IMG/VR virus record: IMGVR_UViG_3300028840_003168
DNA: 64,000 nucleotides
Source of the DNA: a virus
Direction: 5' to 3' (one strand)
The notes under the pieces are model-generated. The model was not told the origin of the DNA, did not search any database, and worked only from the letters and a program-made list of their open reading frames with translations. Below, one piece after another: positions 7,640 through 47,050 of this stretch; within the stretch, counting starts at the first letter, position 1, and each line of letters opens with the position of its first letter. Made by a program: the position numbers and the translations under genes.

Positions 7640-7909
7640 ATGAGGAATCGCAGAAACCCACGCTGCTCAAGCCCCGGAGAGAATCGGGCCGGTTCTAAGT
7701 TTAAGGCTAAGTTTAATTACAGGAGATCCCAGGACGTGGACGGGTTCAGGTTCGGTGAAGATGGCTACATGGAAGTAATGGATGCCATCGTGGAGATGGT
7801 TGAGAACGGATACGGGGTCGTGGACATCATGCTCAACATCGGTGAGAGGTTTCCGCGGGAAATGGCAACAAAGGTGCTTGAGGAAGCACGAGCGCAGGGA
7901 ATCTTATGA
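7640..7909 (+). CDS. hypothetical protein, basic N-terminus and acidic C-terminus
   Basis: GAGG SD. Switches from basic to acidic at RRSQ. Confidence 0.6.
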   Translation: MRNRRNPRCSSPGENRAGSKFKAKFNYRRSQDVDGFRFGEDGYMEVMDAIVEMVENGYGVVDIMLNIGERFPREMATKVLEEARAQGIL

Positions 7910-8184
7910 AACTCAAAGGCCTCACGGATAAGTCGGTAAAGAGGGTGGCCAAGGCTACCAAGACCCGAGAGGATATTTTGAGTATGGCTCAGTCGAATGC
8001 GGAAATGGCAATTGACCAGGCTTATGAACCAGATTTTGAGGATCTCCAGGATGCGATAGACTCTTACTATGAGAATGCAGCAGACACGATGGCGGAATGG
8101 GGTTTTACCGTGTCAGACCGTGAATGGGATCTCATGTACGATGAATACTTTGCTACCGTAGAACGACTTCGGGGAGACCAATGA
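7906..8184 (+). CDS. leader-A acidic protein
   Basis: Starts MKLKGLTDKSVKRVA; ATGA overlap with the previous gene. Confidence 0.8.
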   Translation: MKLKGLTDKSVKRVAKATKTREDILSMAQSNAEMAIDQAYEPDFEDLQDAIDSYYENAADTMAEWGFTVSDREWDLMYDEYFATVERLRGDQ

Positions 8185-8594
8185 AACTCAAAGGCCTCAC
8201 GGATAAGTCTATCAGCCGTATTGCGGACATGTTCGAGGTACCTTATTCCAAGAGCTACAAGAACAAGATGGACGAGCTGGAGGCATACCAGCCAGCTGAT
8301 GAGGAGCTGGTGGACCTGGCAGAGGTACTTTACGGTTGCATCGATGACGAGGATACCTGGGTACCTCAGGTGACGAATTCCAGGATACCGACCAGGAGTG
8401 ATAACAATGTGGAGTCGGTGAGGTTCTACATGAATGTCGCCGCCGACGATATGGGCCGAGGTTTGGATTGGCTGGGTGCTTTGGCGAAACTGTGGGCAGT
8501 ACATTCGGCCACCGGGTACACCCATGCCATAGATGAGCTGCACGGAAGGTGCTGTGTTCAGGAGGAAGAGGATGAGACTCAAGGGATTATCTGA
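8181..8594 (+). CDS. leader-A acidic protein
   Basis: Starts MKLKGLTDKSISRIA. Confidence 0.8.
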   Translation: MKLKGLTDKSISRIADMFEVPYSKSYKNKMDELEAYQPADEELVDLAEVLYGCIDDEDTWVPQVTNSRIPTRSDNNVESVRFYMNVAADDMGRGLDWLGALAKLWAVHSATGYTHAIDELHGRCCVQEEEDETQGII

Positions 8595-8952
8595 TGAAGG
8601 TGTTAAGAGGGTGGCAGGTACCTTGCGAAAGACTGCGGACCTGGCTCCCAAGGACTTCATGACGGATATCGTGGTGAGTGATGACGGTTGGGGGTACTAC
8701 CTGATTTACGAGAAGGCCGACGATTCCTTGTACGTTTTCAGAGATGACAGGGACGCCGAGGAGGATAAGACTTTCAGTCTTGAGGTTGTCTGGGATGGGG
8801 TGGAACTCGAAGGTACCTTGGAGGACTGGGACGCTTTCAATGCGATTGATTGGGAAACCAAGAAAGGTCTCGCCGATGCCTTGGAGAAAGAGCTGAAGGA
8901 TGTTGAGGAGGGGGAGCAGACCCGTAAGGAATATCTGAGAAGAGGTTGGTGA
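8572..8952 (+). CDS. leader-A acidic protein
   Basis: GGAGG SD before ATG 8572; starts MRLKGLSDEGVKRVA. Confidence 0.8.
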   Translation: MRLKGLSDEGVKRVAGTLRKTADLAPKDFMTDIVVSDDGWGYYLIYEKADDSLYVFRDDRDAEEDKTFSLEVVWDGVELEGTLEDWDAFNAIDWETKKGLADALEKELKDVEEGEQTRKEYLRRGW

Positions 8953-9347
8953 TGAAACTTAAAGGATTATCTAACAAAGGTGTGAAGCGGGTAGCTTCTG
9001 TCATTAAAGGATATGGCCAGCGCGATCCTCAGAATGCTGTGGGCATAAGCGCATTTGAGGTCTTCGGAGACTCCGTTGATGCCTACCAAGAGTTTGCCTG
9101 GAACTATTTTGATAGAGGCCCGGAGGGCGGTATTGAGCTTCCGCAGACTTCTCTCGATAAAGAGATGATCATGTATGCCATGCAGGAGCATGTTGACGAG
9201 ACCACCCAGCCGGGAGGTCCTGGGAGAGCTTTGGGGACAGGTGAGTACCTTGAGCTGGAGGACGCTGGGTACTACCTTGAAACTGTCATTGAGGAGCTTG
9301 AAATACTCCCCATGACCGACGAGGAGCTTTACGGGAGCCCGTATTGA
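8952..9347 (+). CDS. leader-A acidic protein
   Basis: TGATG junction; starts MKLKGLSNKGVKRVA. Confidence 0.8.
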   Translation: MKLKGLSNKGVKRVASVIKGYGQRDPQNAVGISAFEVFGDSVDAYQEFAWNYFDRGPEGGIELPQTSLDKEMIMYAMQEHVDETTQPGGPGRALGTGEYLELEDAGYYLETVIEELEILPMTDEELYGSPY

Positions 9348-9580
9348 TGAGCCAGAAGGATAACATCATCGCTACCACTGAAGGGATACTGGACGCCTTG
9401 AGGGCACTCACAGGGCGTCTCTATGATGCTTTGGAGAGGTACCGGGAGGATGATGATGTGGAATCTTTGGGTGAGGAGATAGAGGACCAGGTGGACTATA
9501 TGATACCGGATGTGGCCACGGTCATGAAAGACCTTGCTTTGGACATCAGTCTTGAGGCTGTTGAAACTTTGGAGGATTAG
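9344..9580 (+). CDS. acidic hypothetical protein without leader
   Basis: ORF translationally coupled within the cluster. Confidence 0.65.
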   Translation: MMSQKDNIIATTEGILDALRALTGRLYDALERYREDDDVESLGEEIEDQVDYMIPDVATVMKDLALDISLEAVETLED

Positions 9581-9584
9581 GGAA

Positions 9585-9899
9585 ATGCGTTTAAAAGGAT
9601 TATCAGAAAAGGGTGTCCAGCAGGTTGCCAGGACGATTAAGGGACAGGATACCTATGAGTGGCAGTACGGTACTGAGATAGACCCCCTGGCCACCGCAGT
9701 ACACAACGATTTGAATGATGCCGAGGCTTATGCCAAGGAGCTTGTCTCGGATGTTGACGCTATTCTGTATTCAGCTACCTCACCCCATCAGGAAGTGAAG
9801 GACTGGGTACATGAAGTTCGTTGGGCCGCTGAAAAAGCACAGGCTCTCGTTAACCTTTTGGAGATGGTTGCTGATACATTAGAGGAGGGTAGTCAATGA
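9585..9899 (+). CDS. leader-A acidic protein
   Basis: ATG 9585; starts MRLKGLSEKGVQQVARTIKGQ. Confidence 0.8.
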   Translation: MRLKGLSEKGVQQVARTIKGQDTYEWQYGTEIDPLATAVHNDLNDAEAYAKELVSDVDAILYSATSPHQEVKDWVHEVRWAAEKAQALVNLLEMVADTLEEGSQ

Positions 9900-10372
9900 G
9901 ACTCAAAGGAATCACAGGACAGGGCATTCAACGGGTTGCCAGGACGATTAAGGCTCAGGGTGAAGGGCTTACCATGTTTGACCTGGACACCTTCGCACAG
10001 GCCTATGTAGAAGCCATGCTGTGGTCCTCCTCCACCATGGAGGATGATGCAGAGATGTTCGGTGAGGAGTTTGCCGAGAACCTGGATGACTTGGTAGGGT
10101 TCATTGACATGTCTCCTGAGGCGGTAGCCCAGGTGAAAGAGGACTGTGATCAGTTCCAGGAGGAGAATGCGGAACTTCTCGATCAGGTGTCGGAGGAGTT
10201 CGGGGTTGGCGACGACCAACACGGCCATGATTTCTGGCTTACTAGAGCAGGTCATGGTGCTGGGTTCTGGGACCGCGGTTACGGTGACTTGGGGGAGAGG
10301 CTGTCGGACGCCGCCCGGAAGTTTGGGCATATCGATCCTTATATCGGTGATGACAAGAAAGTCTATTTTTGA
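9896..10372 (+). CDS. leader-A protein with conserved phage HDFWLTRxGHGxGFWDR domain
   Basis: Starts MRLKGITGQGIQRVARTIKAQ. The C-terminal motif is one I recognise from uncharacterised phage proteins. Confidence 0.8.
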   Translation: MRLKGITGQGIQRVARTIKAQGEGLTMFDLDTFAQAYVEAMLWSSSTMEDDAEMFGEEFAENLDDLVGFIDMSPEAVAQVKEDCDQFQEENAELLDQVSEEFGVGDDQHGHDFWLTRAGHGAGFWDRGYGDLGERLSDAARKFGHIDPYIGDDKKVYF

Positions 10373-10447
10373 AAAAAGAACCTAAAAATATATCCAGGTT
10401 GTCAGATCTCTGGTATACCTTCCGTCTGAGTAGGTAAGGAGGTCAGC

Positions 10448-10729
10448 ATGACAATTTTTCAAGAAGGCGGCATCAGGGTTTACGATGAGAACACCAAGGA
10501 AACCTGGGACGGTATCAGGGAGCCTTCAGAGGCATTCTTAGAGAGGCTCTCAGATGTGTCTGTGAACGCCGAGATGGCCTATGCCGAGGTTATCCTGGAG
10601 TTCTTCAAGACCCTGGAACCCGAGGACCGTGATGAGGCCCTGGAATGGTTTGAGAACCATTACGAGAACGATACGGCCATGCTGTCCGAGATAGTAAACT
10701 GGATTCGCCGTGGCCTGAGGGACTGGTAA
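10448..10729 (+). CDS. acidic hypothetical protein with own promoter
   Basis: TGGTATACC and TAAGGAGG upstream. Confidence 0.75.
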   Translation: MTIFQEGGIRVYDENTKETWDGIREPSEAFLERLSDVSVNAEMAYAEVILEFFKTLEPEDRDEALEWFENHYENDTAMLSEIVNWIRRGLRDW

Positions 10730-10740
10730 AGGAGGTTCAA

Positions 10741-11037
10741 ATGAGACACGAGGACTTCATAAAAGGTGTGAACAAGAACGCAGCTAGGGCAGTTCGTAGA
10801 CGTGGTGATGCCTTGAACACTTCATACGAGGCTCAGGTGGATGTACTGAAGGGCTTTCTTGCGGAGAGGCTAGATGGTATTCAACGTGAGTTGAGTGAAG
10901 GTCCCGCAGCTGAACGTCTACCGGAAGTTTTGACAGACATGTCGGAGTTAGCAGAGTCCCTGAAGTCTCAACTGAGCGTCTTGGATATGGAATACGAAAC
11001 CCATCGAGAGATGTCCGATGCCGGGTTCACAGGATAG
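10741..11037 (+). CDS. leader-B protein
   Basis: Starts MRHEDFIKGVNKNAA; AAGGAGG SD. Confidence 0.8.
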   Translation: MRHEDFIKGVNKNAARAVRRRGDALNTSYEAQVDVLKGFLAERLDGIQRELSEGPAAERLPEVLTDMSELAESLKSQLSVLDMEYETHREMSDAGFTG

Positions 11038-11046
11038 GAGTAACCA

Positions 11047-11397
11047 ATGAGACACGAGGATTTCATAAAAGGTGTGAACAAGAACGCTGCCAAGGCCATC
11101 AGGGCTGATGTGGTTCAGCCGAAGGTTACCCAGGCCCGTATCATCTATGACGACAATTCAGACAACCCTGGGTGGTTCGTCCGGTACACTTTGTCGGATG
11201 GTCAGATACTTGATACGTCTTACGGGATGCCTGATGATCCTGAGTACCCCGAGAACGATTTGTACGATGCCGCCGACGATGCTTTATTCTATGAGGGCTA
11301 TTCCCATGATGACGTAATCTATGAGATTGTAGGCGGCAATCCTGGTGAAGGTGATCCCGACCCAGAGGGTGTGTTCCCGGACGACATCTTAGACTGA
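11047..11397 (+). CDS. leader-B acidic protein
   Basis: Starts MRHEDFIKGVNKNAA. Confidence 0.8.
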   Translation: MRHEDFIKGVNKNAAKAIRADVVQPKVTQARIIYDDNSDNPGWFVRYTLSDGQILDTSYGMPDDPEYPENDLYDAADDALFYEGYSHDDVIYEIVGGNPGEGDPDPEGVFPDDILD

Positions 11398-11416
11398 CAG
11401 AGACAAGGAGAGACCG

Positions 11417-11692
11417 ATGAGACATGAAGACTTCATCAAAGGTGTGAAGAAGAACGCTGTGAAGGCCAAGGTTGTGGTGGCCCAGGATGCAGAGAGTGGG
11501 CCTATCTACGACCACGCTTACACGGTGGCCTTCTCTGTCAAGACCCCACACGAAGCCCAGGACGTTACGGCTGAGGAGCTCCTGGATGGTTTGGCTGACC
11601 GGCTCAAGGATCTGGAAGCAACTGGCGAGGTTTTCGAGGCTGTCGGGATGCCCTACGACACTGCAAAAATCGAGGATGGCTTCATCGAGTGA
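11417..11692 (+). CDS. leader-B acidic protein
   Basis: Starts MRHEDFIKGVKKNAVKAKVVVAQ. Confidence 0.8.
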   Translation: MRHEDFIKGVKKNAVKAKVVVAQDAESGPIYDHAYTVAFSVKTPHEAQDVTAEELLDGLADRLKDLEATGEVFEAVGMPYDTAKIEDGFIE

Positions 11693-11758
11693 ACCTCCTC
11701 CTTTAATCCCCCCAACACCGTACATGGTACAATACCTTCCAGGAAAAGGAGGTACTCG

Positions 11759-12457
11759 ATGTACGAGTTCTACCCATTATGGAAACACAAATTCACAGGA
11801 GCGATTCTCCTGGGGATTCTGATTATATTCGTCACCGTGATGATGGTGACCAACGGCGCCAAAGTAAACCCGTTCACCACAACCCAGACACTCACCGCGG
11901 GAGGAGTTCTCTCAGGAACTCTACTGGTAACGACCACCATTCAAGCCATCGCAAGGTACATTCTCAGAAGAGGTATATTCCATTCCCACTTTGTCATTCT
12001 CCGGGATGGCCACACAACCAATGTTGTCTTCAGGTACGGCTCCGGGATAGCTTCCAAGTTGCTCAAGTTATGGGATGTCATACCCAAGGAAGGTGAGATC
12101 CGCCCACTGCTGAGTGAAAGTGAGAAGCTCCTGGGGAAGGCGGCTCCAAGGGTAACCTTGAACAACTTAGACCCTTACATCTTCGTGACGTTCAAAAGGC
12201 AGGGTACTTTGAAGAGTTGGGAATCCAGGGCGTCTCTCCTGCTGTGGCTGGCAGGTCTGAAGAGGTGGCAGTGGTGTGAGCTGGAATGGTTGAATGATGA
12301 CCAGCACAATACCAGGACAGGGATGAGGAACCTTCTGAGACACGAGTTGGAGCATACCATGATTGCAAGGTCATATCCCATGTGGGAGGAGAGCATGCAC
12401 CACAGGGTAATGGAGTTCTCCAGGATGGAGGAGGTCTTGGAGGATCATAATGGATGA
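11759..12457 (+). CDS. membrane protein with HExxH motif (possible zincin peptidase)
   Basis: Two N-terminal hydrophobic segments, LRHELEH near the C-terminus, AAGGAGG SD. Confidence 0.55.
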   Translation: MYEFYPLWKHKFTGAILLGILIIFVTVMMVTNGAKVNPFTTTQTLTAGGVLSGTLLVTTTIQAIARYILRRGIFHSHFVILRDGHTTNVVFRYGSGIASKLLKLWDVIPKEGEIRPLLSESEKLLGKAAPRVTLNNLDPYIFVTFKRQGTLKSWESRASLLLWLAGLKRWQWCELEWLNDDQHNTRTGMRNLLRHELEHTMIARSYPMWEESMHHRVMEFSRMEEVLEDHNG

Positions 12458-12458
12458 G

Positions 12459-12731
12459 CTACTGATCGCAGTGTGAGCAGGGTTCCTTTGCAGTCGCCTC
12501 GTCCATAGGCGTTCCACACACATGGCAGGCGTACCCTCCGATGTCCAGGGCGGTGGTGAGTATCATCCTGCGGACAGGATCGTATGACCTGAGGTAGGTG
12601 ACCTCCTCGTCGCTGGACAGCTCCTCGATGAGATGCTGGGCGGTGAGCTTCCTGATGGTGAGGATAGCTGGCTGGCCGTCGATGGTGGCCGTGTACGGGT
12701 CTTCAAACAATGGTGTGAAGTCCTGGGGCAT
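12459..12731 (-). CDS. hypothetical Zn-ribbon protein, the only convincing minus-strand gene
   Basis: AAGGAGG SD on the minus strand; CHVC...CSHC; fills the gap between + genes. Confidence 0.7.
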   Translation of the reverse strand: MPQDFTPLFEDPYTATIDGQPAILTIRKLTAQHLIEELSSDEEVTYLRSYDPVRRMILTTALDIGGYACHVCGTPMDEATAKEPCSHCDQ

Positions 12732-12799
12732 GGGGTACCTCCTTCCTATGGTAGGTATGACGGGGTGCAGGTACTTTTTCTGACAAATATGTGAATGGC

Positions 12800-12823
12800 T
12801 TCAAACTTTTTTGGTATCTTCCC
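12800..12823 (+). promoter_or_regulatory. phage promoter motif copy
   Basis: TTCAAACTTTTTTGGTATCTTCCC followed by GAGGAGG and ATG 12839. Confidence 0.75.
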
Positions 12824-12838
12824 TATGAGGAGGTACCG

Positions 12839-13552
12839 ATGAGCGAATCAAAACCAGGCAAACTGAAACCTTACAATAAGTGTACGAAGAGTGAACTGAT
12901 CGATCATCTGCGGATACGGGATTTGCAGTTGGGGGAGGAGAAGGCCAACGTCAAGTCCTACACGATAGCCTTGGACAAAGCCCAGGAGGAGCTGGAGGAT
13001 GCCATAGTCGCCAGGGAGAACCTGCTGATAGAGAAGACCCAGATGGGTGTTGACCAGGCTGCGGAACTGCACAAGGTCAGTACAGACTGTGGGGAGGCCG
13101 CGGGGTTTGTCAATAATGTGCTGGACAGGTTGATTGGTCTGGTGGCCGAGGAGAAACTGAACAGAGGGGTGTTCGAGGAAGTTTCCATGAAGCTCCACAT
13201 AGCCATCTCTCTGATGCACAGGGACTCTACTTCAACGTATGTCAAACGGCTTATAGATACCATGGAGAAGGCCAAAGCCGCGGCTGAAGGTACTCCAATG
13301 AAAAAGAGCATATCTGTGGGAGAGCCCAAGCCCATCATCCTGCACCTGGAGAAGGTGGGTAAGAAGAAGATTGATGTTATCAGGCTCATTCGGAATTACA
13401 TGGGACTAGGGTTGCAGGAAGCAAAGGTTCTGGCAGAGGATTGTACCAACTTCGGGAAGTCCATTGAGGTGTACTCACACGTTGACCTTCGGGAGATAGT
13501 CAAGGTAGCCACGGAGTTTCAGGAAGTGGGAGCGAAGGTTTACTACAAGTAG
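12839..13552 (+). CDS. coiled-coil protein with C-terminal ribosomal protein bL12 (L7/L12) CTD-like domain
   Basis: LEKVGKKKIDVIRLIRNYMGLGLQEAKVLAE...FQEVGAKV matches the bL12 CTD pattern. Confidence 0.75.
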   Translation: MSESKPGKLKPYNKCTKSELIDHLRIRDLQLGEEKANVKSYTIALDKAQEELEDAIVARENLLIEKTQMGVDQAAELHKVSTDCGEAAGFVNNVLDRLIGLVAEEKLNRGVFEEVSMKLHIAISLMHRDSTSTYVKRLIDTMEKAKAAAEGTPMKKSISVGEPKPIILHLEKVGKKKIDVIRLIRNYMGLGLQEAKVLAEDCTNFGKSIEVYSHVDLREIVKVATEFQEVGAKVYYK

Positions 13553-13565
13553 GAAGGAAGTTCTA

Positions 13566-14995
13566 ATGGAGATGTCGGGAATTGAATGTCCAAGCTGCGG
13601 TGAGGAGATGGTACTTGTTGAGGATGCAACCATGGTACCGAGGAGGAAGACCCACAAGAGGGTATGTGTCGAATGTGAGTACTTCGAGGAACATGTAGTA
13701 CCCGAGGTTGAGCAACCTGGGTTTGACCCGAAGGATGAGCCCTACGTTGAGGACAGGAGGTAGGTATGTCTGACAGTTCATATGACGAACGCATGGGTAA
13801 GGGCACACCTGATCCTTGTATTCGATGTAAGAACCTCAGGGTGGACCACGACAGGTGGTCGGTGGATATTGATTACAAAGGTCACTGTGACTGGGATGAG
13901 GACGAAGGCCGCTTGTGGGGTCATGCTCACTGCCCAAAGTTCTGTGAGGTTCAGCCTGCTGAGGAACCCGAGACTGAAGTACCTGAGCCAGAGGAAACTG
14001 AATCTACCAAAGACGAGTCCTACAGTCTGACTAAGGATGGTGATCTGCTGCTCTATTATGTATGGGGTATCGGGGGTTCTCTTGAGGAGATGGGCATCGA
14101 TTTCTCATGTGTACCTGAGGAGAAACAGGAGTGGCTTGCAGAGGCCGTTACGGAGATGGTGCAGGCTGCCTACCAGGAAGGTCAGAAGAAGGCCAGGAAG
14201 GACATCAGGAAGGCCCGAGAGGCGTACCTGGAGAGCATGGGGGTGGAAGATGCCGACTGATCCAAAAGACTTGAAGAAGATGACCAAGGCCGAACTCATA
14301 TCGAAGATTACTCGGATGGATATCCTACTCCGCAACCTGGACGAGGTGAAACCTCCTGAGAAGGTTTTCAAGACACCAAACTTCAGAGGTATCCGAAGGT
14401 TCATGGTTACCGAGGTGGCCACCCACGAAGGATCTGGAACTGAAGATGATCCGTCCCGTCTGGTATATTGGGTATATGACGATGAGGGTGAACTCATCGC
14501 CGTGACCGATACTTCTCACGAGATACACCCAAGGTTCAGGTCGCATGCAGAGAGTCTGCAAATGGAGAAATGATGACTGACTACAAACAAGTGTACGTTG
14601 AGCCCGAACCTTTTGGAGAGGTTCCAGAGCAAATCATAAGGCACATCTATTCGGTGGCCAGTATGGGTTTGAGTACTATGGAGATGCTTCCACATTGGAT
14701 TGGTGAGATGCCGCCCTATGAGGAACAGGAGATACCTTGGGTCCAGGTAACCTGTGAAGCTCGGGACGGGAAAATCATCCTTTTTACCGAGTTCCAGTTG
14801 GGTCCGTTGGCTGAGTACCTGCGGGACAAGTTCAGGTTGCCTAAGGGTTTGTCGAAGGAACCCATGTTTCTGACACCTCCTGCGAGGGTGTACTTTCAAG
14901 AGTTGGTTGCCCATGAGCTGAGGGAGCTGCTCGGGGCTGGCAAGTTAGTCAAAGGAAGCGACCGCTGGGTGTTTAATGGAGGAGAAACCAAATGA
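13566..14995 (+). other. four hypothetical CDSs (13566-13763, 13766-14260, 14250-14573, 14570-14995)
   Basis: Coupled ORFs with SD sequences. Confidence 0.65.
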
Positions 14996-18688: not shown

Positions 18689-18694
18689 AACTTT

Positions 18695-19050: not shown

Positions 19051-19057
19051 ACTTCTT

Positions 19058-20816: not shown

Positions 20817-22538
20817 ATGCGTAGGTTAGTGAATATCCCAGAGTTTGAAGTTCAAATCAGGTTAAGAAACAACCTTCTAGTGCAGCGAAGGGAGCAGCTG
20901 GACCTGACCCAGGCAGGGTTCGCCCGCATCCTGGGTATGAGTCAGAGCTCCTACAATCAGTACGAATGTATGCGTACCTCCCCGATGAATATGAAAACCG
21001 GCAGGTGGAAAGAGATACCTTTAAAGATAGCTGAATTCTGGGGCGAGAGTCCAGAGAACCTGTGGCCTGATGTAGTTAGGGCGATAAGGAAGGCTATGGT
21101 TAGGTTCAGGCTGGACGGAGAAGCTGCGCTGATGCTGGTTGGTCAGGCAACTAGGGAAATGTCTTCGTCACCTGAAGCCTTGTTTGAGTTCAAGGAGCGT
21201 GATCATGTTTTGGGTGCCATGGTCAAAACAAGTCTGACCCCTAGAGAGTCTGTGATCCTGTCTCGGAAGTTCGGGCTGGGTGACACAAAAGAACACACCT
21301 ATCAGGAATTGGCTGCCTACCTTGAAGTGTATCATAAAGAAAGACCCAGACAGATTGCCGAGAAGTCGTTGAGAAAGCTGAGGCATCGTGAGTGCTCAGA
21401 ACCTTTGAAAGAATATTTGGATATGGACCGAACGGATTTGAACCTTTTTGGTATATTACCTGATGTAGGTGACGATGCAGGAACCTACGATGAAAGGAGG
21501 TTGAGTATCCCAACTGTAAGTAAGTATTCAGACAGAACGACAAAGTGTCGCTGGTGCAGCAAACCTTTTTTGAAGAGAAGCTGGCTGGCTAGACATGAAA
21601 GAGGCTGTCTGGAACGGAACAAGACTCGTAAAAAAGCGAAACCAAAAGAAAGGAAACGCAAAATGAGTAGTAACAAAACGAATGAAGAGAAAGTCTGGAA
21701 TAATCCAGGGCAGGCGGGTGAGTTTATGTGGGTTCCGAAGGGAGACATAGAGATTGACCACACGTACCAGCGGGATGAGCTGTCTGGGCATGTGAACAAG
21801 ATGGCTAAAAACTTTACCTGGCGGTGGTTCGGAACCCTCTCGGTAGAGCGGAGGTCAAGTGGGAGGCTGTTCGGTATCGACGGCCAGCAGCGGCTCCTGG
21901 CCGCGCTCAAGCGCCCGGACATCACGGAAGTTCCCTGCATGGTTCATGTTTCAAAGGGGGTCAAAGGGGAAGCCGCAGACTATAGTGGGATAAACAATAA
22001 CAGAAGGAACCTCCAGGCTTATGACAAATTCAAGTCTGAGCTCACCCAGAAGATCCCTCTGGCGGTGAGGATCAACGAGATGGTTCAGAAGAATGGCTAT
22101 CACATCAAGTACAAGACCAGTGAACCTTATAGTTTCATGGCTATTGGTACGCTGTGGAGTCTGTCAAAGCGGGACGAAGCCACAACTGCTGAGGTGTTCC
22201 GTTACCTGGCCGCTATTGCCATTGACGGAGAACGCATCCACCAGCGGGTTTTCCACGGCATGTACCTATTCGTGCGCTATCAGCGAAGAGGCGGTTATGA
22301 TTTCCTGGCCGATAAAGAGAGGATGCAGGACTTGAAGATGCTCGGACTCAAGAACATCCCGAAGGCAGCCAAACGGGTATCCCAGGACGAGAGCCTGGAC
22401 TTTGAGGGTCCATCTGCCTACGCCTACGCCATTTTCCAGGAACTGAATCGGGATCTCCCGAAAAATCAGAAGATAAAGTGGTACGGGCCAAAGAACTCTA
22501 AGGAGTCCAAGGCAGAAGAAGCTAAAGAAGCTGCGTAA
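20817..22538 (+). CDS. XRE HTH + sigma70 region-4 + Zn-finger + ParB-like multidomain protein
   Basis: LTQAGFARILGMSQSSYNQYE (XRE); LTPRESVILSRKFGL...ERPRQIAEKSLRKLRH (sigma region 4); CRWC...H; IDHTYQR...IDGQQRL (ParB-like). Confidence 0.75.
   Translation: MRRLVNIPEFEVQIRLRNNLLVQRREQLDLTQAGFARILGMSQSSYNQYECMRTSPMNMKTGRWKEIPLKIAEFWGESPENLWPDVVRAIRKAMVRFRLDGEAALMLVGQATREMSSSPEALFEFKERDHVLGAMVKTSLTPRESVILSRKFGLGDTKEHTYQELAAYLEVYHKERPRQIAEKSLRKLRHRECSEPLKEYLDMDRTDLNLFGILPDVGDDAGTYDERRLSIPTVSKYSDRTTKCRWCSKPFLKRSWLARHERGCLERNKTRKKAKPKERKRKMSSNKTNEEKVWNNPGQAGEFMWVPKGDIEIDHTYQRDELSGHVNKMAKNFTWRWFGTLSVERRSSGRLFGIDGQQRLLAALKRPDITEVPCMVHVSKGVKGEAADYSGINNNRRNLQAYDKFKSELTQKIPLAVRINEMVQKNGYHIKYKTSEPYSFMAIGTLWSLSKRDEATTAEVFRYLAAIAIDGERIHQRVFHGMYLFVRYQRRGGYDFLADKERMQDLKMLGLKNIPKAAKRVSQDESLDFEGPSAYAYAIFQELNRDLPKNQKIKWYGPKNSKESKAEEAKEAA
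21438..21461 (+). promoter_or_regulatory. phage promoter motif copy, internal to CDS
   Basis: TTGAACCTTTTTGGTATATTACCT. Confidence 0.65.
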
Positions 22539-37672: not shown

Positions 37673-37673
37673 G

Positions 37674-39287: not shown

Positions 39288-39344
39288 TTGCACCTCCGCA
39301 GAGTTAGACACCTATATGAAGAACCTAAGAAAGGGTTACTTGCC

Positions 39345-39854: not shown

Positions 39855-40638
39855 CGAGTCCCAACCGACCGAGGAGTTCATCCGCGAGATGCGCGAGAGC
39901 ACCAAAGCAACCCATGAGCGGCTGTACATGCCTGGACGGAAGTGGCATAGCCAAAGAACTCTTTCGCGGGTGGTGCATGTCTGGCCAACCGTTAGAGCAT
40001 CTGATGCAGACCGTGGTGGGCGCGGCGACCTCTTACAGGCTGTAAGAGGGAACGAGAACAGTCATTTTAAAATGCAGGACCGCTTGATGTTCCCGACTCC
40101 TGTAGATGCCAGCAAGGGGGGCGGCTCAAGTCGTAGCGGGAACCGCATAAACGAGATCCCTTCACTGCAAGGTATGGCAAGAGCGGGTCGGTGGCCCACA
40201 CCGACAAGGCGCGATTGGAAGAACGGCAAAGCCAGCCAGGCGACACATAACAAAAATAGTAGGCCTTTGAACGAGGCGGTTGTAAAATGGCCCACACCTC
40301 AGGCAAATGATTCCAGAACTCCCTGTTTCTCAGGGTCCAAACGTGCGAAGGGGATGCTCCCGACAATAGTTGGCGGGAGCCTTAATCCTGACTGGGTGGA
40401 GCTTCTTATGGGCTGGCCTTTAGGTTGGACCTCCCTGTCGGCAATGTATGAAGAGGACATCTACGCTTGGAGCACAACTGCGGGGTTCTGGGGTAGTGAC
40501 TGGGAGCAGGATGTACCGAGAACCACACTTGACCGTGACAGCAGGGTGGATCGCCTTAAGGCAATAGGTAACGGTCAGGTATCTCTGGCTGCGGTTGTGG
40601 CATGGGAGTTCCTGACACGGAACCTGATCTTCTTTTAA
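39766..40638 (+). CDS. DNA cytosine-5 methyltransferase, C-terminal part in overlapping frame (start uncertain; frame open from 39274)
   Basis: Five [WF]PT[PV] repeats, LNPDWVELLMGWP (motif IX-like), RLKAIGNGQV (motif X). Confidence 0.75.
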   Translation: MRSGVVFQRKTLERPIKGTGSGLWPTPAADESQPTEEFIREMRESTKATHERLYMPGRKWHSQRTLSRVVHVWPTVRASDADRGGRGDLLQAVRGNENSHFKMQDRLMFPTPVDASKGGGSSRSGNRINEIPSLQGMARAGRWPTPTRRDWKNGKASQATHNKNSRPLNEAVVKWPTPQANDSRTPCFSGSKRAKGMLPTIVGGSLNPDWVELLMGWPLGWTSLSAMYEEDIYAWSTTAGFWGSDWEQDVPRTTLDRDSRVDRLKAIGNGQVSLAAVVAWEFLTRNLIFF

Positions 40639-40686
40639 TCCTACTAAAATTCTTGTGATACTATAATCCTCAAGAGGAGGTCCCTC

Positions 40687-41217
40687 ATGAGCGATAAGTT
40701 TAAGATGATTGGTAGCATCACGACGCTGGCACTTACCCTGGTGCTGGCCCTGGTGGGTGCCGTGGGCAACTACCTGGACCGCGGCGAGGAGAAAGCCGAC
40801 AAGGTTCTTGAGGTCATGAAGGTCCAGATAGAGCATACCGAAAGAGTTCAGAAGGCCCTGTCGGAGGATGTGGGCAAGCTCCAGGATGCACTCCTGATGC
40901 TCGGCATGCAGAGCTTAACCGCCAAGAAGGATGCTCCTGTAATGTCCAGCCACCCTCCTGTGGGCCGTTTCCATTCCCGAGGGCTTGGAGTCGGGGGTGC
41001 AGGCTCAGGCAGCTCTGGTGCCGGGAGAGGCTCCTCAGGGAGGAGACCGGCACCTCCTCCTGCGGAACCCGAGGAACCCGCCGAGGAGGGTGCGGATGAG
41101 GAAGCTCCTGAGGAGGAGAAGAAGGAAGCCAAGAAAGTGGTCAAGAAGAAGCTCAAGCTGGATGACATGAAGTCAGCCCATGTTCAGCAACGTCCGATGC
41201 TCCCTGTGGGTCTGTAG
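40687..41217 (+). CDS. membrane-anchored coiled-coil protein with G/S- and P/E-rich tail
   Basis: TATAAT and GAGGAGG upstream; one N-terminal transmembrane segment. Confidence 0.7.
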   Translation: MSDKFKMIGSITTLALTLVLALVGAVGNYLDRGEEKADKVLEVMKVQIEHTERVQKALSEDVGKLQDALLMLGMQSLTAKKDAPVMSSHPPVGRFHSRGLGVGGAGSGSSGAGRGSSGRRPAPPPAEPEEPAEEGADEEAPEEEKKEAKKVVKKKLKLDDMKSAHVQQRPMLPVGL

Positions 41218-41312
41218 GGTAAGAAATCTTACCCAACCATAAGAAAGTTTATGTTTCCGGGTAGGGTAACCCAACATAAGAAATCTTATGTTAGGATAAG
41301 AAATCTTATGTT
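41217..41312. repeat. four palindromic TAAGAAATCTTA-type repeats
   Basis: Copies at 41217-41234, 41238-41253, 41273-41292 and 41296-41309. Confidence 0.85.
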
Positions 41313-41403
41313 TTACCGTAATCATTAAGGAAAATACCCTGTAAATATAAGGAGGCTGGCTTGGCACGGCATGTGCAACCTATCCCAGGCAGGAGGTGGC
41401 GAC

Positions 41404-42285
41404 ATGCCCAAAGTCAGAGTCAATATCCATGAAATCTTCTCCTCACTTTGCAGCTCCAGGGTCAGTGAGGTGATCGGCGGCGATGACCTCAAGAAGGTCC
41501 AGGAACACCTCGGGCGCCATGACCTGATCAGGTGGGGCCAGTACCCCGAACTCATGATGGTCCACGACACGGACCTGAAGGAGACCTACCTCTATTTTGT
41601 GGATGTCTCCTCGGGCGACATCGTGTCGGACCTGGTTAGGTTCGACTCCCGCGGCGAGGCCAAGGTGGCACCGGCCAAGGTCACCGAGGAATTTCTTAGG
41701 CCCCTGCTTAATGAACATGACTAAATTCATATATCTACAGTCTAATTTAAATTCCCTAATGTGTGTACTTTATACTGATCGTCAGGAGAACGTACTTCTT
41801 CATTGATTACAATGGAGTTGGAAAGTAGATTTTCTTGGTATATTAGAGACATGCACATGAGAAAACTTCACAGGCTGGACTTTCTTAAAGACGAGTTTCT
41901 GAGTGACCTACGACGGCTCAAGGGCCAGTCATTCTGGGACAAGCCCGATACCGACATCTCGATACTCATCGCCATCGGAAGTTTCGACTTCGATGTCCAG
42001 AGCTTCTCGGCGGTGCATCCCCAGGAATTTGAACAGTGGAAGAAGGACGTGGCCGTACGGCTGCGTGAGGACTTCATGGAGTTTGACCTTGACCTGGAGT
42101 TTACCTACACCGCGGCAGACCACATCATTGAGTACAAGTCGTGGGTGGATGACGAGCTCTCCACCGAGGACCTGATAAAGCTACAGGATGAGATACTCAA
42201 GGCCATCCCGGAGATAGCCGACGAGTGTTACGAGGACATACAAGAAAACGGGATCTTCGGACCCGATGGACTACTAGGAGAATGA
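41404..42285 (+). other. two hypothetical CDSs (41404-41724; ~41851-42285 acidic)
   Basis: The first has an AGGAGG SD. The second follows TGGTATATT and turns acidic after RRLKGQ. Confidence 0.6.
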
Positions 42286-42286
42286 G

Positions 42287-42721
42287 ATGACAAAGTTCAA
42301 CGCAAGTATTCAGGATGAGGGTCTGAAGCGAATCGCAGGGCAGATGGGCGGCTCCTCCCGGCAGGCGCAGGAAGAATCTGGCGATTACAGATCCTATTGG
42401 GATAATGTTGAAGAGACTGCTCAGTGGGTAAAAGACAACTACAAGGATTATGGCGGTAACGTACACGATGCTCTTAATGAGTCAGTGGAAAGTGATCGTT
42501 GGGTGTTCATTACCTGGAAAGCCCATAAGACCATGGAACACACCGCCAATGAGGATGCTCTCTGGGATCAGATGGGAAGCATGGAAGCGGACAGCTGGAG
42601 CCAAGTAGTAACCCAGGCGGCGTTCTTTGCTCTTTCTCAGGATATTACTGATAAGATGTTTGAAATGGGCTGGGATGGCGGTGAATCCTGGGGTGAAGAT
42701 GACGAAGACGAGGAGTACTAG
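42287..42721 (+). CDS. divergent leader-A acidic protein, Ocr-like DNA mimic candidate
   Basis: QDEGLKRIA...RQAQ leader; VHDALNESVES; acidic tail EDDEDEEY. Confidence 0.6.
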   Translation: MTKFNASIQDEGLKRIAGQMGGSSRQAQEESGDYRSYWDNVEETAQWVKDNYKDYGGNVHDALNESVESDRWVFITWKAHKTMEHTANEDALWDQMGSMEADSWSQVVTQAAFFALSQDITDKMFEMGWDGGESWGEDDEDEEY

Positions 42722-42725
42722 ACCA

Positions 42726-43100
42726 ATGAAACACTCAGACTTCATAAAAAATGTGAACCAGCCTCAACGCACCGCCCAGGAGAAGGGCTACCAGGGCTGG
42801 ACTAACTATGAGACTTGGGCTCTCGCGCTGTGGCAGGACAATGACCAAGGTCTTTACCAAATGATTCAAGAGATGGTGGCTGAAGCAGCACAAACCGATC
42901 CTGGCAGAACTGGTGAGGGTGTTCGTGGTGATGACACTATCGTCCTGGCTGACATGATGAAGGACTTCTGGGAAGAGATGTATCCCGAGAACTTGGATGG
43001 CCCCTGGTCAGACCTGCTTCGGGCGGCATGGGATGAGATAGATTGGTACGATATCGCTGAAAGTGAACTGGCCGAATACAGGCTTCAGAACGAGGAGTAG
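42726..43100 (+). CDS. leader-B protein with conserved phage GWTNYETW domain
   Basis: ATG 42726; MKHSDFIKNVNQPQRTAQ followed by GYQGWTNYETWALALWQDND. Confidence 0.8.
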   Translation: MKHSDFIKNVNQPQRTAQEKGYQGWTNYETWALALWQDNDQGLYQMIQEMVAEAAQTDPGRTGEGVRGDDTIVLADMMKDFWEEMYPENLDGPWSDLLRAAWDEIDWYDIAESELAEYRLQNEE

Positions 43101-43104
43101 ACCG

Positions 43105-43926
43105 ATGAAACTTCAAGGAATTTTAAATCAAGGCATGCAGAGGATCGCCAGGGCCGTGATTGCTCAAGAGGAACCGATGGGACCGCCCATGGATGAACCT
43201 GAAGGCACCACAATGCCCGAGGGTGGTAAGCCCAAGGTGCTGGGGGTAGAGAAGCAGGCTTGGTCCTCTGGCGGATACAGCGGAGAGGTCACAGATATCG
43301 ATGTGTTTTCTTCGGCAGCAGCGGAGCAAATGATGGCTCCTTTTGAGGAGGTTCAGGTGTCCGAGGTTTTACAGTTTCTTCAAGATGAGTATGAGGTCTC
43401 GCCCGAGGAGCTTTTAGAAGAATCTGGCAAAAGTCACCCTGACCAAGGCTTCATCAGAATGAACGCTCCCGAGACTGTGGAAAACATGCATCTGGGAGAT
43501 CTTCGGTTAGCTGTCAGGGGTGCTAGACTGGGTTTCAGTGGGAATACCTACAATACGAGCTGGTGGGGTCCTACCTTCGACTACACAATGCTGCCTGAGG
43601 GAGACTCGGATGAGCCTTATGCGGGAGGTATCCTTCTTATCCGAACCCACGAAAGTGGTGATGTACGAGGAGGTTCTTGGGGTTCTTATAGCGATGACAA
43701 AGCATATCGTATTGGCTCCTATGCTGAAGAGGTTCCTTGGTACGATTTGAGGCTGACTGTCATTCTGAATACGGATAGGGGTGAGGTTCTTTTAGACGCT
43801 GAAGACGACGAGGCCTACCACTTCATTGTTGTGAAGGACGAGACAGGGACTTTCGGGACAGATGATTATGTAGATTACGACAATCTGATGGAGGCCTTCG
43901 ATTGGGAAGGTCAGCATCTCTGGTAA
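43105..43926 (+). CDS. leader-A acidic protein
   Basis: GAGGAG SD, ATG 43105; starts MKLQGILNQGMQRIARAVIAQ. Confidence 0.8.
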   Translation: MKLQGILNQGMQRIARAVIAQEEPMGPPMDEPEGTTMPEGGKPKVLGVEKQAWSSGGYSGEVTDIDVFSSAAAEQMMAPFEEVQVSEVLQFLQDEYEVSPEELLEESGKSHPDQGFIRMNAPETVENMHLGDLRLAVRGARLGFSGNTYNTSWWGPTFDYTMLPEGDSDEPYAGGILLIRTHESGDVRGGSWGSYSDDKAYRIGSYAEEVPWYDLRLTVILNTDRGEVLLDAEDDEAYHFIVVKDETGTFGTDDYVDYDNLMEAFDWEGQHLW

Positions 43927-43993
43927 ACAAAAGGCTCCGATGAGCCTTGACAATATTTGACAACGGACCTGCGGGTCCACGGAGGGAAAGAAA

Positions 43994-45322
43994 ATGGCAA
44001 AGACAATTAGGATCACAAACTTACTGGCAAACCCGATTTCGGTTGGCCCGTATCGGATCATCAAGGGCGGCTACAAAGAGGATGACCTGGCGACAGTCCA
44101 GGCCAATTCCCAGACCATGGCCGACATCCTGGAGTATCTGAATGACAGCTACATCAGCGTTACCATTGACGGCGTAGCCGCAGGCTACAACGAGATGGAC
44201 AACTCGCTGTACGTTCCGACTGCGGACTTCAACCTGGCAGGGAGCATCGCCGCGGCGGCGGACTTCCCGACTGCTCTGGCAGTCACTAAGGGCGACGTGT
44301 ACATGATCACGGCAGACGTGACCGATGACGACGCCTCGAAGACCAACACCGGCCTGTCCTTCCCTGCCAATGGGGAAATCGTGTGGAATGGAACTACCTG
44401 GACCCCATTCGGCGACCAGGAAGGCTTCAAGTCTGTAGCGGCGACCCCGTACACGGTTCTGGATTCGGACGGCGTTATCTTAGTGGATACTGTGACCATC
44501 GGCGCCCCCTCGGTCGTGAATCTGCCCACAGCGGTGGATAAGGCTGGTAAAAGGATTACTGTTCAGGATTCTACTGGTGGTGCTGCTGCAAATGCGATTG
44601 CGGTCACTCCGGATGGTACTGAGGAGATCAATGGTGTGAATGCTCCTGTGAGTATTGCCACTAATTTCGGTCAGGTAGCTCTCATCTCGGATGGTGCCAA
44701 CTGGTTGAATGCCGCTGCTGGTGGAAGTGCTGCGATTGCTGCCAATACCGCTCACCGAACTGGTGATGGTTCGGACCACGCTGACGTTGCAACGAACACT
44801 ACCCACTCTACAGGAGATGGAAGTGACCATGCTAACGTGGCTACTAATGATACTCACGTTGCTGGCGACGGTTCGGATCATGCTGATGTGGCGGCAAACT
44901 CCGCAGATATTGCAACCATTATGCCCAAGTTAGTTCAGGTTGTTATTACGGCCACAGGTGGTGTCGGTGGCGCCACGGCGGGAACCATCTCTGTTCAGGT
45001 CAATGACCTGGACGGGAACCCCGTTACCCGTGCAGTGAAGATCGCGCTCGATTCCAGCTTGACCCAGTTCGCAGGTCCTCTGGCCGCAACGGGTACGGCC
45101 TTCTTCGGCGCGGCGACCACAGGCACCTTGAACATTGGTAGCGGTGCGCTGTCGGCAGTCGTCACCACGGACGCCACAGGCCTGTACGAGGGTGCTCTGG
45201 CCGATGCTGCTGATGAGACGGCCTGGTTCAGCGCCAGGACGGTTCCTGGCGGTGCTGCGGCTCTCACAGAGGGCTGTGTGGTAGCCGAGTGTGTAGCAGA
45301 CGACGCGACCTGGACTGCGTAG
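43994..45322 (+). CDS. putative virion structural/fibre protein with His-containing repeats
   Basis: A/T/G/D-rich; WNGTTW; three HxxGDGSDHAxVAxN repeats. Confidence 0.7.
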   Translation: MAKTIRITNLLANPISVGPYRIIKGGYKEDDLATVQANSQTMADILEYLNDSYISVTIDGVAAGYNEMDNSLYVPTADFNLAGSIAAAADFPTALAVTKGDVYMITADVTDDDASKTNTGLSFPANGEIVWNGTTWTPFGDQEGFKSVAATPYTVLDSDGVILVDTVTIGAPSVVNLPTAVDKAGKRITVQDSTGGAAANAIAVTPDGTEEINGVNAPVSIATNFGQVALISDGANWLNAAAGGSAAIAANTAHRTGDGSDHADVATNTTHSTGDGSDHANVATNDTHVAGDGSDHADVAANSADIATIMPKLVQVVITATGGVGGATAGTISVQVNDLDGNPVTRAVKIALDSSLTQFAGPLAATGTAFFGAATTGTLNIGSGALSAVVTTDATGLYEGALADAADETAWFSARTVPGGAAALTEGCVVAECVADDATWTA

Positions 45323-45325
45323 TGA

Positions 45326-45559
45326 ATGAAGCTCCGAGGCATCTCTGACGGAGCCATAAAGAGGATTGCCGGGACTATGTCAAAAGAGTCCGAAGCATAT
45401 CCCGGCAATCTTGGCTTCGTAGAGATGTTGGAGTTCTTCAAGATAGCCTCTCCCGAGCAGGAGGCTGAGATGGACCGCATGCTCGACGCGGGTGACTACG
45501 AAGGAGTCTGGGATCTCCTCAGGGAGGTTACGGGCCATGACCTGGAGGAGTTGAAATGA
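45326..45559 (+). CDS. leader-A protein with EAYPGNLGFxEM domain
   Basis: Starts MKLRGISDGAIKRIA. Confidence 0.8.
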   Translation: MKLRGISDGAIKRIAGTMSKESEAYPGNLGFVEMLEFFKIASPEQEAEMDRMLDAGDYEGVWDLLREVTGHDLEELK

Positions 45560-45798
45560 AACTTGGAGGACTCTCATCTAAGAGTGTTGGGCGTATTGCT
45601 AAAGCTATTAAGGGAGAGGCTGGTTCGCCTTCCAGTGACCGCATCCTTGAGGTGGCCGGTAAGTTACAGGAAGTTGTCAGTGGCCTGGAGTTCATTGCTA
45701 AAGATAGTACTTTCGCGGATGTTCTCACAGAGAAAGAACTCTCTAAAGCGGAAGAGGCCGCTGAGAGTTTGATGTCTCTCATTTACGAGACACCTTAA
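45556..45798 (+). CDS. leader-A protein
   Basis: Starts MKLGGLSSKSVGRIA. Confidence 0.8.
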   Translation: MKLGGLSSKSVGRIAKAIKGEAGSPSSDRILEVAGKLQEVVSGLEFIAKDSTFADVLTEKELSKAEEAAESLMSLIYETP

Positions 45799-45845
45799 TT
45801 GGAGGATCTCCGATGAAGGTTGGTTCTGGTATATTATAGGATAGC

Positions 45846-46244
45846 ATGAGACTTCATGGGTTACAGGATAACGCAGTCAGAAGGATTGCTAGATCTGTGG
45901 CCCGACAGGCATCCAATGTGGAAGGTCTGGAAGCTCCGATTACTCTTGAGTACCAGGTATGGCCGGGAGATCCCCCAAAGCCGATTGTCATTCAGAATCA
46001 GGAAGCCTTAGATACTTTGGTTGAGGCAGCTCTTTGGTTAGGTGAGGAGTGGGAGCGTCGGACAGTAGCGGTTGAAGATGGTACCTGCACTGACATTTAT
46101 TGGGTAGGCGACGAACAGCGTGTTGGCTGGACAGACGTACACTCAAGGTTCCCCCGTCTGCTGGAATTGCTAGGTGTCGATGCCCGACTCGCGCTCGAAG
46201 GAATGAAGAATAAACTGGGCATTGAACTCAGGGAGATACAATGA
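45846..46244 (+). CDS. leader-A protein
   Basis: Starts MRLHGLQDNAVRRIA; TGGTATATT upstream. Confidence 0.8.
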   Translation: MRLHGLQDNAVRRIARSVARQASNVEGLEAPITLEYQVWPGDPPKPIVIQNQEALDTLVEAALWLGEEWERRTVAVEDGTCTDIYWVGDEQRVGWTDVHSRFPRLLELLGVDARLALEGMKNKLGIELREIQ

Positions 46245-46399
46245 GCCCACAAGAACACCCTTACGACAACCCAGGATACCTGACAAACATCTTCGAGGAG
46301 AAGCGCAAGCACCTGACCCCCGAGGAACGCCAGGACGATGACGAAGCCTTTGCCGCCTTTGCGGATTGGATGCTGATGGAGGAAGACGATGAAACTTAA
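46241..46399 (+). CDS. 52-aa acidic protein (not in ORF track)
   Basis: GGGAG SD, ATGA overlap; MSPQEHPYDNPGY...MEEDDET. Confidence 0.6.
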   Translation: MSPQEHPYDNPGYLTNIFEEKRKHLTPEERQDDDEAFAAFADWMLMEEDDET

Positions 46400-46769
46400 A
46401 GGACTGTCGGACAGGAGTGTGGAGAGGATTGCCAAATCGGTTACGGGTCAGGAAGATGACTTTGAAGATACTGAAGATACTGATGAGTCTTTTGCGGAAA
46501 TCAATCCTGCATTTCCAGAATATGTCCAAAATCTTCAAAGATCGTATAATAGGGTAAGCCCTGAAGATTATGCCCAGCATAAGAACCTATTAAGTAGACT
46601 CGTTCCTCTAAATAAGGACATTGATCGTTTTGCTCGTGATTACGAATGGCTTTTTTCACCAGAAGAATTTAGCGTGTTGCAGGATGCTAGAGTCCTTTTG
46701 GAGAACCTTTCTTACCCTCTTTCTCTTTTAACAGTAGAAGAAGATGATAGGCCGTTAGTATTTTTTTAG
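46389..46769 (+). CDS. leader-A acidic protein
   Basis: Starts MKLKGLSDRSVERIAKSVTGQ. Confidence 0.8.
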   Translation: MKLKGLSDRSVERIAKSVTGQEDDFEDTEDTDESFAEINPAFPEYVQNLQRSYNRVSPEDYAQHKNLLSRLVPLNKDIDRFARDYEWLFSPEEFSVLQDARVLLENLSYPLSLLTVEEDDRPLVFF

Positions 46770-46780
46770 AGAGAAAAACA

Positions 46781-47050
46781 ATGAGACTCCAAGGTCTTCC
46801 AAATAAGTCCATACTAAAGATTGCAAAAGTCATACAAGCTCAGGATCAAATACAACGTGTGGCTCCTGGGTATTATTCTTTCACAAATAATTATGGCACA
46901 ACAGGTGAGATATTTCGTCTTGATGAGGGTGTATGGCGTGGATGGTGGGTAGTTCAAATTGATAGATATAATGTAAGTGATCCTGTCAGAACTCTGTCAG
47001 AAGCTAAAGAAATAGCTTACGAATGGGAAGCCGATACGGGGTTCTATTGA
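46781..47050 (+). CDS. leader-A protein
   Basis: Starts MRLQGLPNKSILKIAKVIQAQ. Confidence 0.8.
   Translation: MRLQGLPNKSILKIAKVIQAQDQIQRVAPGYYSFTNNYGTTGEIFRLDEGVWRGWWVVQIDRYNVSDPVRTLSEAKEIAYEWEADTGFY

Follow-up and report, generated by a model that had tools for sequence, protein, structure and literature searches.

In bacteriophage T4, the internal proteins IPI, IPII and IPIII and the protein Alt bear a capsid targeting sequence (CTS) that is cut off by the prohead protease gp21 (Mullaney and Black 1996, as cited in PMC5694885), and the T-even phages' internal proteins form a diverse set with only the CTS in common (PMC3012670). The ejection proteins of giant phages also bear targeting propeptides (PMC5694885), and in phiKZ, 201phi2-1 and SPN3US the propeptides of ejection or inner-body proteins are cut at S/A/G-X-E by a gp21-like protease (PMC5694885, PMC10052503). 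Here we describe a family of short N-terminal leaders in the virus of IMG/VR record IMGVR_UViG_3300028840_003168. The stretch of 64,000 nucleotides that was analyzed (the window) corresponds to positions 3631-67630 of the complete 157,936-bp record, and positions below refer either to the window or to the whole record (genome). An original prediction, made from the letters of the window, had proposed that two families of leaders, A and B, load unrelated acidic proteins into the phage head. Judging from the sequences, a protease model and the analogy with T4, we lean towards this reading, in which the leaders would be a removable address tag that loads acidic proteins into the head in the manner of a T4-like capsid targeting propeptide. 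The T4 CTS with its diverse internal proteins would be the functionally closest known system, followed by the propeptides of the giant-phage ejection proteins.

The 17 leader genes of the original prediction are real. All of them start with ATG, most after a Shine-Dalgarno-like sequence, and the twelve leader-A starts, the divergent leader at window 42287 and the four leader-B starts each carry the leader described for them. Profile scans of the whole genome with both leaders, which the prediction had suggested, revealed more copies than these. The leader-A profile, built from the 12 window copies, gave 16 matches with E values of 1e-6 to 1e-13, plus the gene at 42287 with an E value of 0.005, while the leader-B profile found six copies, four of them inside the window. 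The genome thus harbors at least 23 tagged genes, 17 of type A and 6 of type B. When this genome and a related one (G002) were scanned in six frames, every match was found at the initiator methionine of an open reading frame (ORF), and none was internal. Both leader types are present as proposed, but they do not represent independent families. We regard them as variants of a single tag because they have a common second half and because one gene is a hybrid: the A and B leaders coincide from residue 14/15 to 21, sharing A15, K/R16, I/V/L18, K/R19, A/G20 and Q/D21 at absolute positions, and the gene at genome 80100 (MKHSDFIKGVNRNVAKTLKAQED) combines the first half of B with the second half of A. 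The B profile also weakly matches the second half of A leaders. The shared N-terminal stretch spans 22 residues, where about 20 had been estimated.

A profile search of 1.84 billion representative proteins returned 77 significant matches, and in 72 of these the tag is located at the N terminus (residue 1, in one case residue 12) of proteins of 47-430 amino acids (aa). The consensus is MKLKGISDKGΦKRIAKxIK-[GAS]-Q-[ED]. Column by column, the 72 tags conserve M1 K2 L3 x G5 [IL]6 S7 D8 K9 G10 Φ11 x R13 [IV]14 A15 and then [KRQ]16 x [IV]18 K19 [GAS]20 Q21 [ED]22, after which conservation ends. The terminal [GAS]Q[ED] is found in 35 of the 72, at position 20 in 26 of them, compared to a chance expectation of 0.016 per protein; the cargos of only two have Pfam matches. 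Alignment of the capsid protein led to 58 related viral contigs. Relatives whose capsid protein is about 62% identical or more (62-72% among the phages that keep it) carry the tag or a divergent version of it, for example MKKGITPEAAQRL or MRRNAGGISDDGFSRL; it was not found in more distant relatives or in Virus Rctr197k. In the capsid-gene flanks that were fetched, every copy of the tag is downstream of the capsid gene and on its strand, whereas in whole relative genomes some copies are located elsewhere. One 26-kb contig carries ten copies, and whole-genome searches of relatives gave 9 matches in G002 and 3-6 in five further genomes. By sequence, the tag is a clade-wide add-on.

The original prediction had named conservation at the DNA level only as an outcome that would speak against it, and this is contradicted by a comparison of codons. 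When 16 A copies were compared pairwise over codons 2-16, identities at codon positions 1/2/3 were 0.57/0.74/0.42, and 61% of the identical residue pairs were encoded by different codons. Identity was about random on either side, with values of 0.30 in the 30 nucleotides upstream and 0.27 in codons 25-40. The codon analysis indicates that selection acts on the tag peptide, not on the DNA.

The cargo parts that follow the leaders proved to be as unrelated and as acidic as had been proposed. No BLASTP match was observed between them at E<0.01, and their net charge is -0.167 per residue, compared to -0.017 in 112 other small phage proteins (Mann-Whitney p=2e-12); the leader itself is basic (+0.164 per residue). 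Matches to named families were obtained for only two cargos, phrog_1915 and DUF7249/phrog_871, both families of unknown function. The phrog_1915 model begins at residue 26 of the protein encoded at window 9896, and DUF7249 begins at residue 20 of the protein encoded at window 42726. In an AlphaFold2 model of the 9896 protein, a helix at residues 8-22 with a predicted local distance difference test score (pLDDT) of 64-68 is followed by a domain with pLDDT >90; a fold search with the cargo model against the PDB gave no match at E<=0.001. A further check put forward in the prediction was whether cargo homologues elsewhere lack the leader. The 9896 cargo has >1,400 homologues in public data, most of which are without it: they typically cover ~80-84% of the query at lengths of 115-135 aa, and most start straight with the domain (M..LDxFTxAYxEAxLWSS). 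Only the closest homologues are tagged, and one metagenomic homologue (P0004) carries two tandem tags, each ending in QAQ, before the same cargo domain. The tag is a separable, position-specific and modular add-on.

As in the T4 system, a short N-terminal peptide, always at residue 1, is here attached to 23 otherwise unrelated proteins, their genes are found in variable arrays, and the consensus of the tag ends in a small/aliphatic-x-acidic motif. Also as in T4, the phage has a predicted gp21-fold protease together with a separate scaffold protein. On the other hand, the consensus MKLKGISDKGΦKRIAKxIKGQE shows no resemblance by inspection to the T4 sequence MKTYQEFIAE. With 22 residues the tag is longer than the T4 sequence with its 10, and it is a basic helix where the latter is acidic/hydrophobic; the phage has 23 genes with a tag, in contrast to the handful in T4; and the T4 internal proteins are basic, unlike the strongly acidic cargos found here. 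Because of these differences in length, charge, cargo number and cargo acidity, the tag is, by sequence, not a member of the T4 CTS family.

The prohead protease was identified by PHROGs and fold comparison only (the helicase, terminase, portal, scaffold-like and capsid genes were assigned by PHROG or Pfam). The gene at genome 73318-74223 matches the PHROG 'head maturation protease' (phrog_18299, E 4e-30), and sequence searches with its product found nothing in the PDB (phmmer and profile) or in Pfam. Its model aligns with T4 gp21 (5JBL) with a Z score of 8.5 and a root mean square deviation of 3.1 Å over 145 of 165 residues, and the next rows of the fold search had Z scores of 5.5 or less and covered only the C-terminal helices. 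The model thus points to the presence of a T4 gp21-fold prohead protease, in agreement with the T4 precedent invoked in the original prediction. Glu is the residue after which the gp21-type proteases of T4, phiKZ, 201phi2-1 and SPN3US cut, their sites being [L/I]-x-E, S/A/G-x-E or A-x-E (PMC5694885), and the end of the tag, [GAS]-Q-[ED], fits this after-Glu rule by its sequence. Directly before the N-arm helix (..RR.ILAAA) of the major capsid protein (genome 76979-78280; L002:9349-10650), 23 of 27 distinct sequences have Glu and another 3 have Asp; in this phage the site reads S-K-E150. This pre-helix motif is S/A-x-E in 10 of the 11 closer, tag-bearing sequences, the eleventh (L035) having P-P-E, and mostly P-x-E in more distant relatives. 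We also considered the sequence F-R-K-T-A-Q at the N terminus of the protease as a tag-like autocleavage site. The clade conserves F-x-K-T-A but not the Gln, and we regard the site as a lead only.

Several features of the head genes were observed alongside. In the tag-bearing subclade, the protease (~302 aa) and the scaffold (~650 aa; here the 650-aa scaffold-like protein encoded at genome 74216-76168) are separate overlapping ORFs, and the scaffold has extra conserved regions at 1-90 and 231-450. In distant untagged relatives (L011, L038, L046, L063, L067, L070 and L074) the protease ORF extends to at least 494 aa, which suggests a fusion of protease and scaffold. At its N terminus the capsid protein is extended by ~60 residues with an extreme content of Arg and Pro (RKSRRPAVPSRSARRTSKPRRRPITAARKPRRKP...), an extension that is much shorter in relatives; a similar RRRPARRRPAR run is found in the scaffold-like protein.

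The tag can also be compared with the propeptides of phiKZ, 201phi2-1 and SPN3US. The boundary [G/A/S]-Q-[E/D] is compatible with their S/A/G-X-E, the genome is a large one of myovirus type, and jumbo phages have distantly related terminases. Their propeptides, however, are mostly longer than 100 residues and paralogue-specific (PMC5694885), while the tag described here is an interchangeable 22-mer. The genome is ~158 kb, unlike those of giant phages, and no virion RNA polymerase was seen in it. A looser analogy is offered by the encapsulation peptides of bacterial microcompartments and the cargo-loading peptides of encapsulins, the shells of which have the HK97 fold. In both, a short terminal amphipathic helix with a linker sends unrelated cargo into a protein shell. 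These peptides are not removed by a protease and are not viral, and the resemblance is an analogy only.

The genome also encodes three giant acidic polyproteins, in which acidic modules are joined by Arg-rich linkers ending in [AGS]-Q (for example, RRRPARRRAQ followed by GDD). These are polyprotein 1 (1557 aa, genome 148921-153594), polyprotein 2 (1793 aa, genome 154643-157936+124-2211, running through the join of the record) and polyprotein 3 (578 aa, genome 2215-3951), the C-terminal end of which corresponds to window 1-321. The pattern [KR][KR]x?[AGS]Q occurs 39 times in this genome against 9.7±3.2 expected, a four-fold excess; the copies are concentrated in the three polyproteins, with one each in the portal, the protease N terminus and the scaffold. 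The linker motif was ruled out as a clade-wide partner of the tag, because G002 is tagged but has no ORF with two or more such sites. We also considered a module of polyprotein 3 as a homolog of the 9896 cargo. This was unsupported: BLASTP at E<0.01 detected no homology, and a profile of 88 members of the cargo family did not match polyprotein 3, with only i-E values of 0.14-0.33 for the other two polyproteins. Polyvalent proteins of phages and conjugative elements have been proposed to be packaged and proteolytically released (Iyer et al. 2017, PMC5512222). The polyproteins resemble these in holding many modules in one polypeptide. They differ in that a Pfam scan of polyprotein 1 found no domain, including those of PMC5512222, and in that their processing would use the Arg-rich [AGS]-Q linkers instead of a peptidase domain within the polypeptide.

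Taken as a propeptide, the tag would open with MKLKG, continue as a basic amphipathic helix (ISDKGΦKRIAKxIK) and close with the motif [G/A/S]-Q-[E/D] at its boundary. The tag would dock newly made cargo onto the scaffold or core of the assembling prohead, the gp21-type prohead protease would then remove it at or beside the boundary motif, and a changing set of small acidic proteins would stay in the head and be released with the DNA. We infer docking, cleavage, residence in the virion and injection. The further proposal that the cargos are DNA mimics or anti-defence proteins is suggested by their acidity, the only property that points in this direction. The head-cargo interpretation of the original prediction is partly supported: the leaders are a separable N-terminal tag, the proteins that bear it are unrelated and acidic, the phage has a protease with the predicted gp21 fold, and the tag has a small-x-acidic end. 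Two of the three clusters lie in or next to the structural module. Two clusters are present in the window, as described, and the third is located outside it, at genome 80.1-87.9 kb. This cluster 3 comes directly after the capsid gene, with membrane/lysis-type and connector genes interspersed among its own.

Information on the timing of expression comes from promoter-like motifs. The motif AATTYCCTA-N10-TWTATAAT (TTTAAATTYCCTA-N10-TTTATAAT) was found in intergenic DNA only, at window 57149 and 41750 and at genome 73241, 79231, 89132 and 146684. It precedes the operon of a KTSC protein and a 1978-aa protein, the protease-scaffold-capsid operon, the post-capsid operon (cluster 3) and a tail operon. 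It also precedes the first gene of cluster 2, where it reads AATTCCCTA-N10-TTTATACT (window 41750..41776, + strand); the site near genome 146,684 stands before a 59-aa ORF of unknown function. The motif is a candidate late promoter, and its place before two of the three clusters lends the capsid-targeting reading indirect support.

A number of points weigh against a role of the tag in loading the head. Cluster 1 has no late-like motif; it stands behind a sigma-70-like promoter at the gene of an SNF2 helicase (window 1641-4046) and contains an extended -10-like site, and as it is not behind a late-like motif, it may be made early. Strongly acidic cargos are odd for proteins stored among DNA, the internal proteins of T4 being basic, and the tag and the T4 CTS are not similar in sequence. 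Only about half of the tags carry [GAS]Q[ED] in full. The polyprotein linkers keep [AGS]-Q constant and not the acidic residue, so that the scissile bond is uncertain. Confidence in the protease model is modest (mean pLDDT 61.5), and the clade consists of uncultured phages without an isolate. The tag (32 residues, 28-row alignment) was also submitted to complex prediction with the N-domain of the scaffold, with the protease and with the capsid protein; the score of 0.12, against a mark of 0.32, counts neither for nor against this role.

The early expression that is possible for cluster 1 would suit a different explanation, in which the tagged proteins dock through their tag on another partner that they share in the infected cell (a hub protein of the phage, a chaperone or a machine of the host, for example), and the tag gathers acidic effectors there with no role in the capsid. 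A short amphipathic helix that carries the invariant residues G5, R13 and A15 suggests that the peptide sits tightly in the groove of one receptor, and acidity would suit inhibitors of the DNA-mimic type acting in the cytoplasm. This explanation leaves the fixed-length tag with its protease-like end, its conserved position downstream of the capsid gene in tagged relatives (in the flanks that were fetched), and the late-like motif before clusters 2 and 3 unaccounted for, and we consider it rather unlikely.

The charges of the two parts raise the possibility that the tag is a propeptide, removed by the head protease or another one, that keeps acidic proteins inactive or soluble through charge masking or timing and has no targeting function. 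A basic tag (+0.16 per residue) does precede an acidic cargo (-0.17 per residue), and the same basic-[AGS]Q-acidic layout is found in the polyprotein linkers and with non-homologous basic N-terminal segments that end in [AGS]Q before acidic domains (window 6932, 7640 and 41803; genome 84156). For charge masking there would be no need of residues that are nearly invariant in fixed positions on ~72 unrelated cargos, and this reading appears improbable to us.

A weak, non-significant Nif11 match on one leader (E 0.06) brings to mind the leaders of ribosomally synthesized and post-translationally modified peptides (RiPPs), in which case the tag would be the recognition sequence of a modifying enzyme. 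Pfam and PHROG scans, in which many neighbors remained without annotation, detected no maturase-like gene beside any of the three clusters; the sole enzyme-like neighbor (a protein with an HExxH motif, window 11759-12457) is not syntenic in G002; and the cargos are folded domains of 60-250 aa, not short core peptides. We consider a RiPP-like leader very unlikely. A double-glycine bacteriocin leader (of the type recognized by peptidase-containing ATP-binding transporters, PCAT) was also considered, and by eye neither the hydrophobic register nor the GG end fits. Finally, a leader without a function of its own, left over from gene duplication or conserved at the DNA level as a recombination cassette, which could be imagined from the tandem arrays and from 29 identical nucleotides common to the first two tagged genes, is contradicted by the codon analysis (42% identity at third against 74% at second positions, with different codons for 61% of identical residues), by the random identity of the flanks, by the unrelated cargos and by retention of the tag across phages with capsid proteins only 62-72% identical, and is hardly credible.

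Returning to the capsid-targeting propeptide, we tentatively extend the proposal to the whole clade. In these uncultured phages of 130-210 kb, the 22-residue basic helical tag, together with Arg-rich [AGS]-Q polyproteins in this member, may serve to fill the capsid with dozens of rapidly changing acidic proteins that are delivered together with the DNA, in a system far larger than that of T4 and with a reusable tag. If this is true, the clade has one of the largest known sets of co-injected proteins, with at least 23 genes in a single genome and ~72 cargo clusters in public data. Should the tag load heads, its strongly acidic cargos, nearly all of unknown function, would be a natural place to seek new inhibitors of host defence. 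Short, sharply delimited at its end and without relation to the T4 CTS, the tag would also provide a second, independent handle for packaging foreign proteins.

The tagged genes of the window are all on the + strand. Cluster 1 begins with leader-A genes detected by the leader profile at window 7906..8184 (92 aa, acidic cargo, E 1.3e-12), 8181..8594 (137 aa), 8572..8952 (126 aa, the tag ending ...RKTA directly before D), 8952..9347 (131 aa) and 9585..9899 (104 aa, tag end IKGQD), followed by the leader-A gene with the phrog_1915-family cargo at 9896..10372 (158 aa). Leader-B genes, found with the B profile, follow at 10741..11037 (98 aa), 11047..11397 (116 aa) and 11417..11692 (91 aa, tag end VVAQD). 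In cluster 2, the first gene after the promoter-like motif (41803..42285, + strand) encodes an acidic 160-aa protein, the N-terminal segment of which is not homologous to the tag yet ends in RRLKGQ. It is followed by the divergent leader-A gene (SIQDEGLKRIAGQ; 42287..42721, 144 aa, leader-A profile E 0.005), the leader-B gene at 42726..43100 (124 aa, tag end RTAQE), with DUF7249 at residues 20-102 and phrog_871 as its cargo, and a leader-A gene at 43105..43926 (273 aa, tag end IAQEE). An untagged gene on the same strand (43994..45322) encodes a structural-type protein of 442 aa with GDGSDHA repeats that matches the PHROG 'baseplate protein'. Beyond it lie leader-A genes at 45326..45559 (77 aa), 45556..45798 (80 aa), 45846..46244 (132 aa, with the extended -10-like TGGTATATTA upstream), 46389..46769 (126 aa, tag end TGQED) and 46781..47050 (89 aa, tag end QAQD). 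These and the gene at 43105 were found with the leader profile.

The ends of the record overlap by 123 bp and the 1,793-aa ORF crosses the join without a stop, and the map is therefore circular with arbitrary ends. Approximately 85% of ORFs from crude calls are on the + strand. The large terminase subunit is encoded at window 49535..51685 (+ strand; phrog_17415, E 5e-44) and the portal at genome 69925. The closest GenBank record is the uncultured Virus Rctr197k, with a terminase 38% and a capsid protein 57% identical to those of this phage. Relatives of the head module further off are Bacillus phage G, Ralstonia phage phiRSL1, Erwinia/Dickeya jumbo phages and large actinobacteriophages (Mycobacterium, Gordonia and Rhodococcus phage E3). 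Upstream of the portal gene are the 421-aa acidic protein with a KTSC domain at its end (window 57198-58463) and the 1978-aa protein, which starts at window 58463, runs past the window end, has a net charge of -162 and is without a family match.

Directly after cluster 1, the 232-aa HExxH protein (window 11759-12457, + strand) has hydrophobic, membrane-helix-like stretches in its N-terminal half and the sequence HELEH near its C terminus, and may be a membrane metalloprotease; its homolog in G002 is located 125 kb from the leader cluster there. The protein encoded at window 12791-13552 (+ strand, 253 aa) has a C-terminal domain matching the C-terminal domain of ribosomal protein L7/L12 (PF00542, E 4.9e-9, above the Pfam cut-off). 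A 573-aa protein (window 20817-22538, + strand) contains an N-terminal helix-turn-helix, a sigma-70 region-4-like segment and a ParB-like region, features with which it may be a transcription regulator of the phage. A second motif, TTCAAACTTTTTTGGTATATT(A/C)CC, is of the extended -10 type and is found in about a dozen highly conserved intergenic copies ~20-30 nucleotides before start codons. The copies are mostly in the small-gene region (window 17281, 19068, 22568, 24611, 31585, 35349 and others), variants precede replication and terminase genes, and the motif probably represents one temporal promoter class of the phage.

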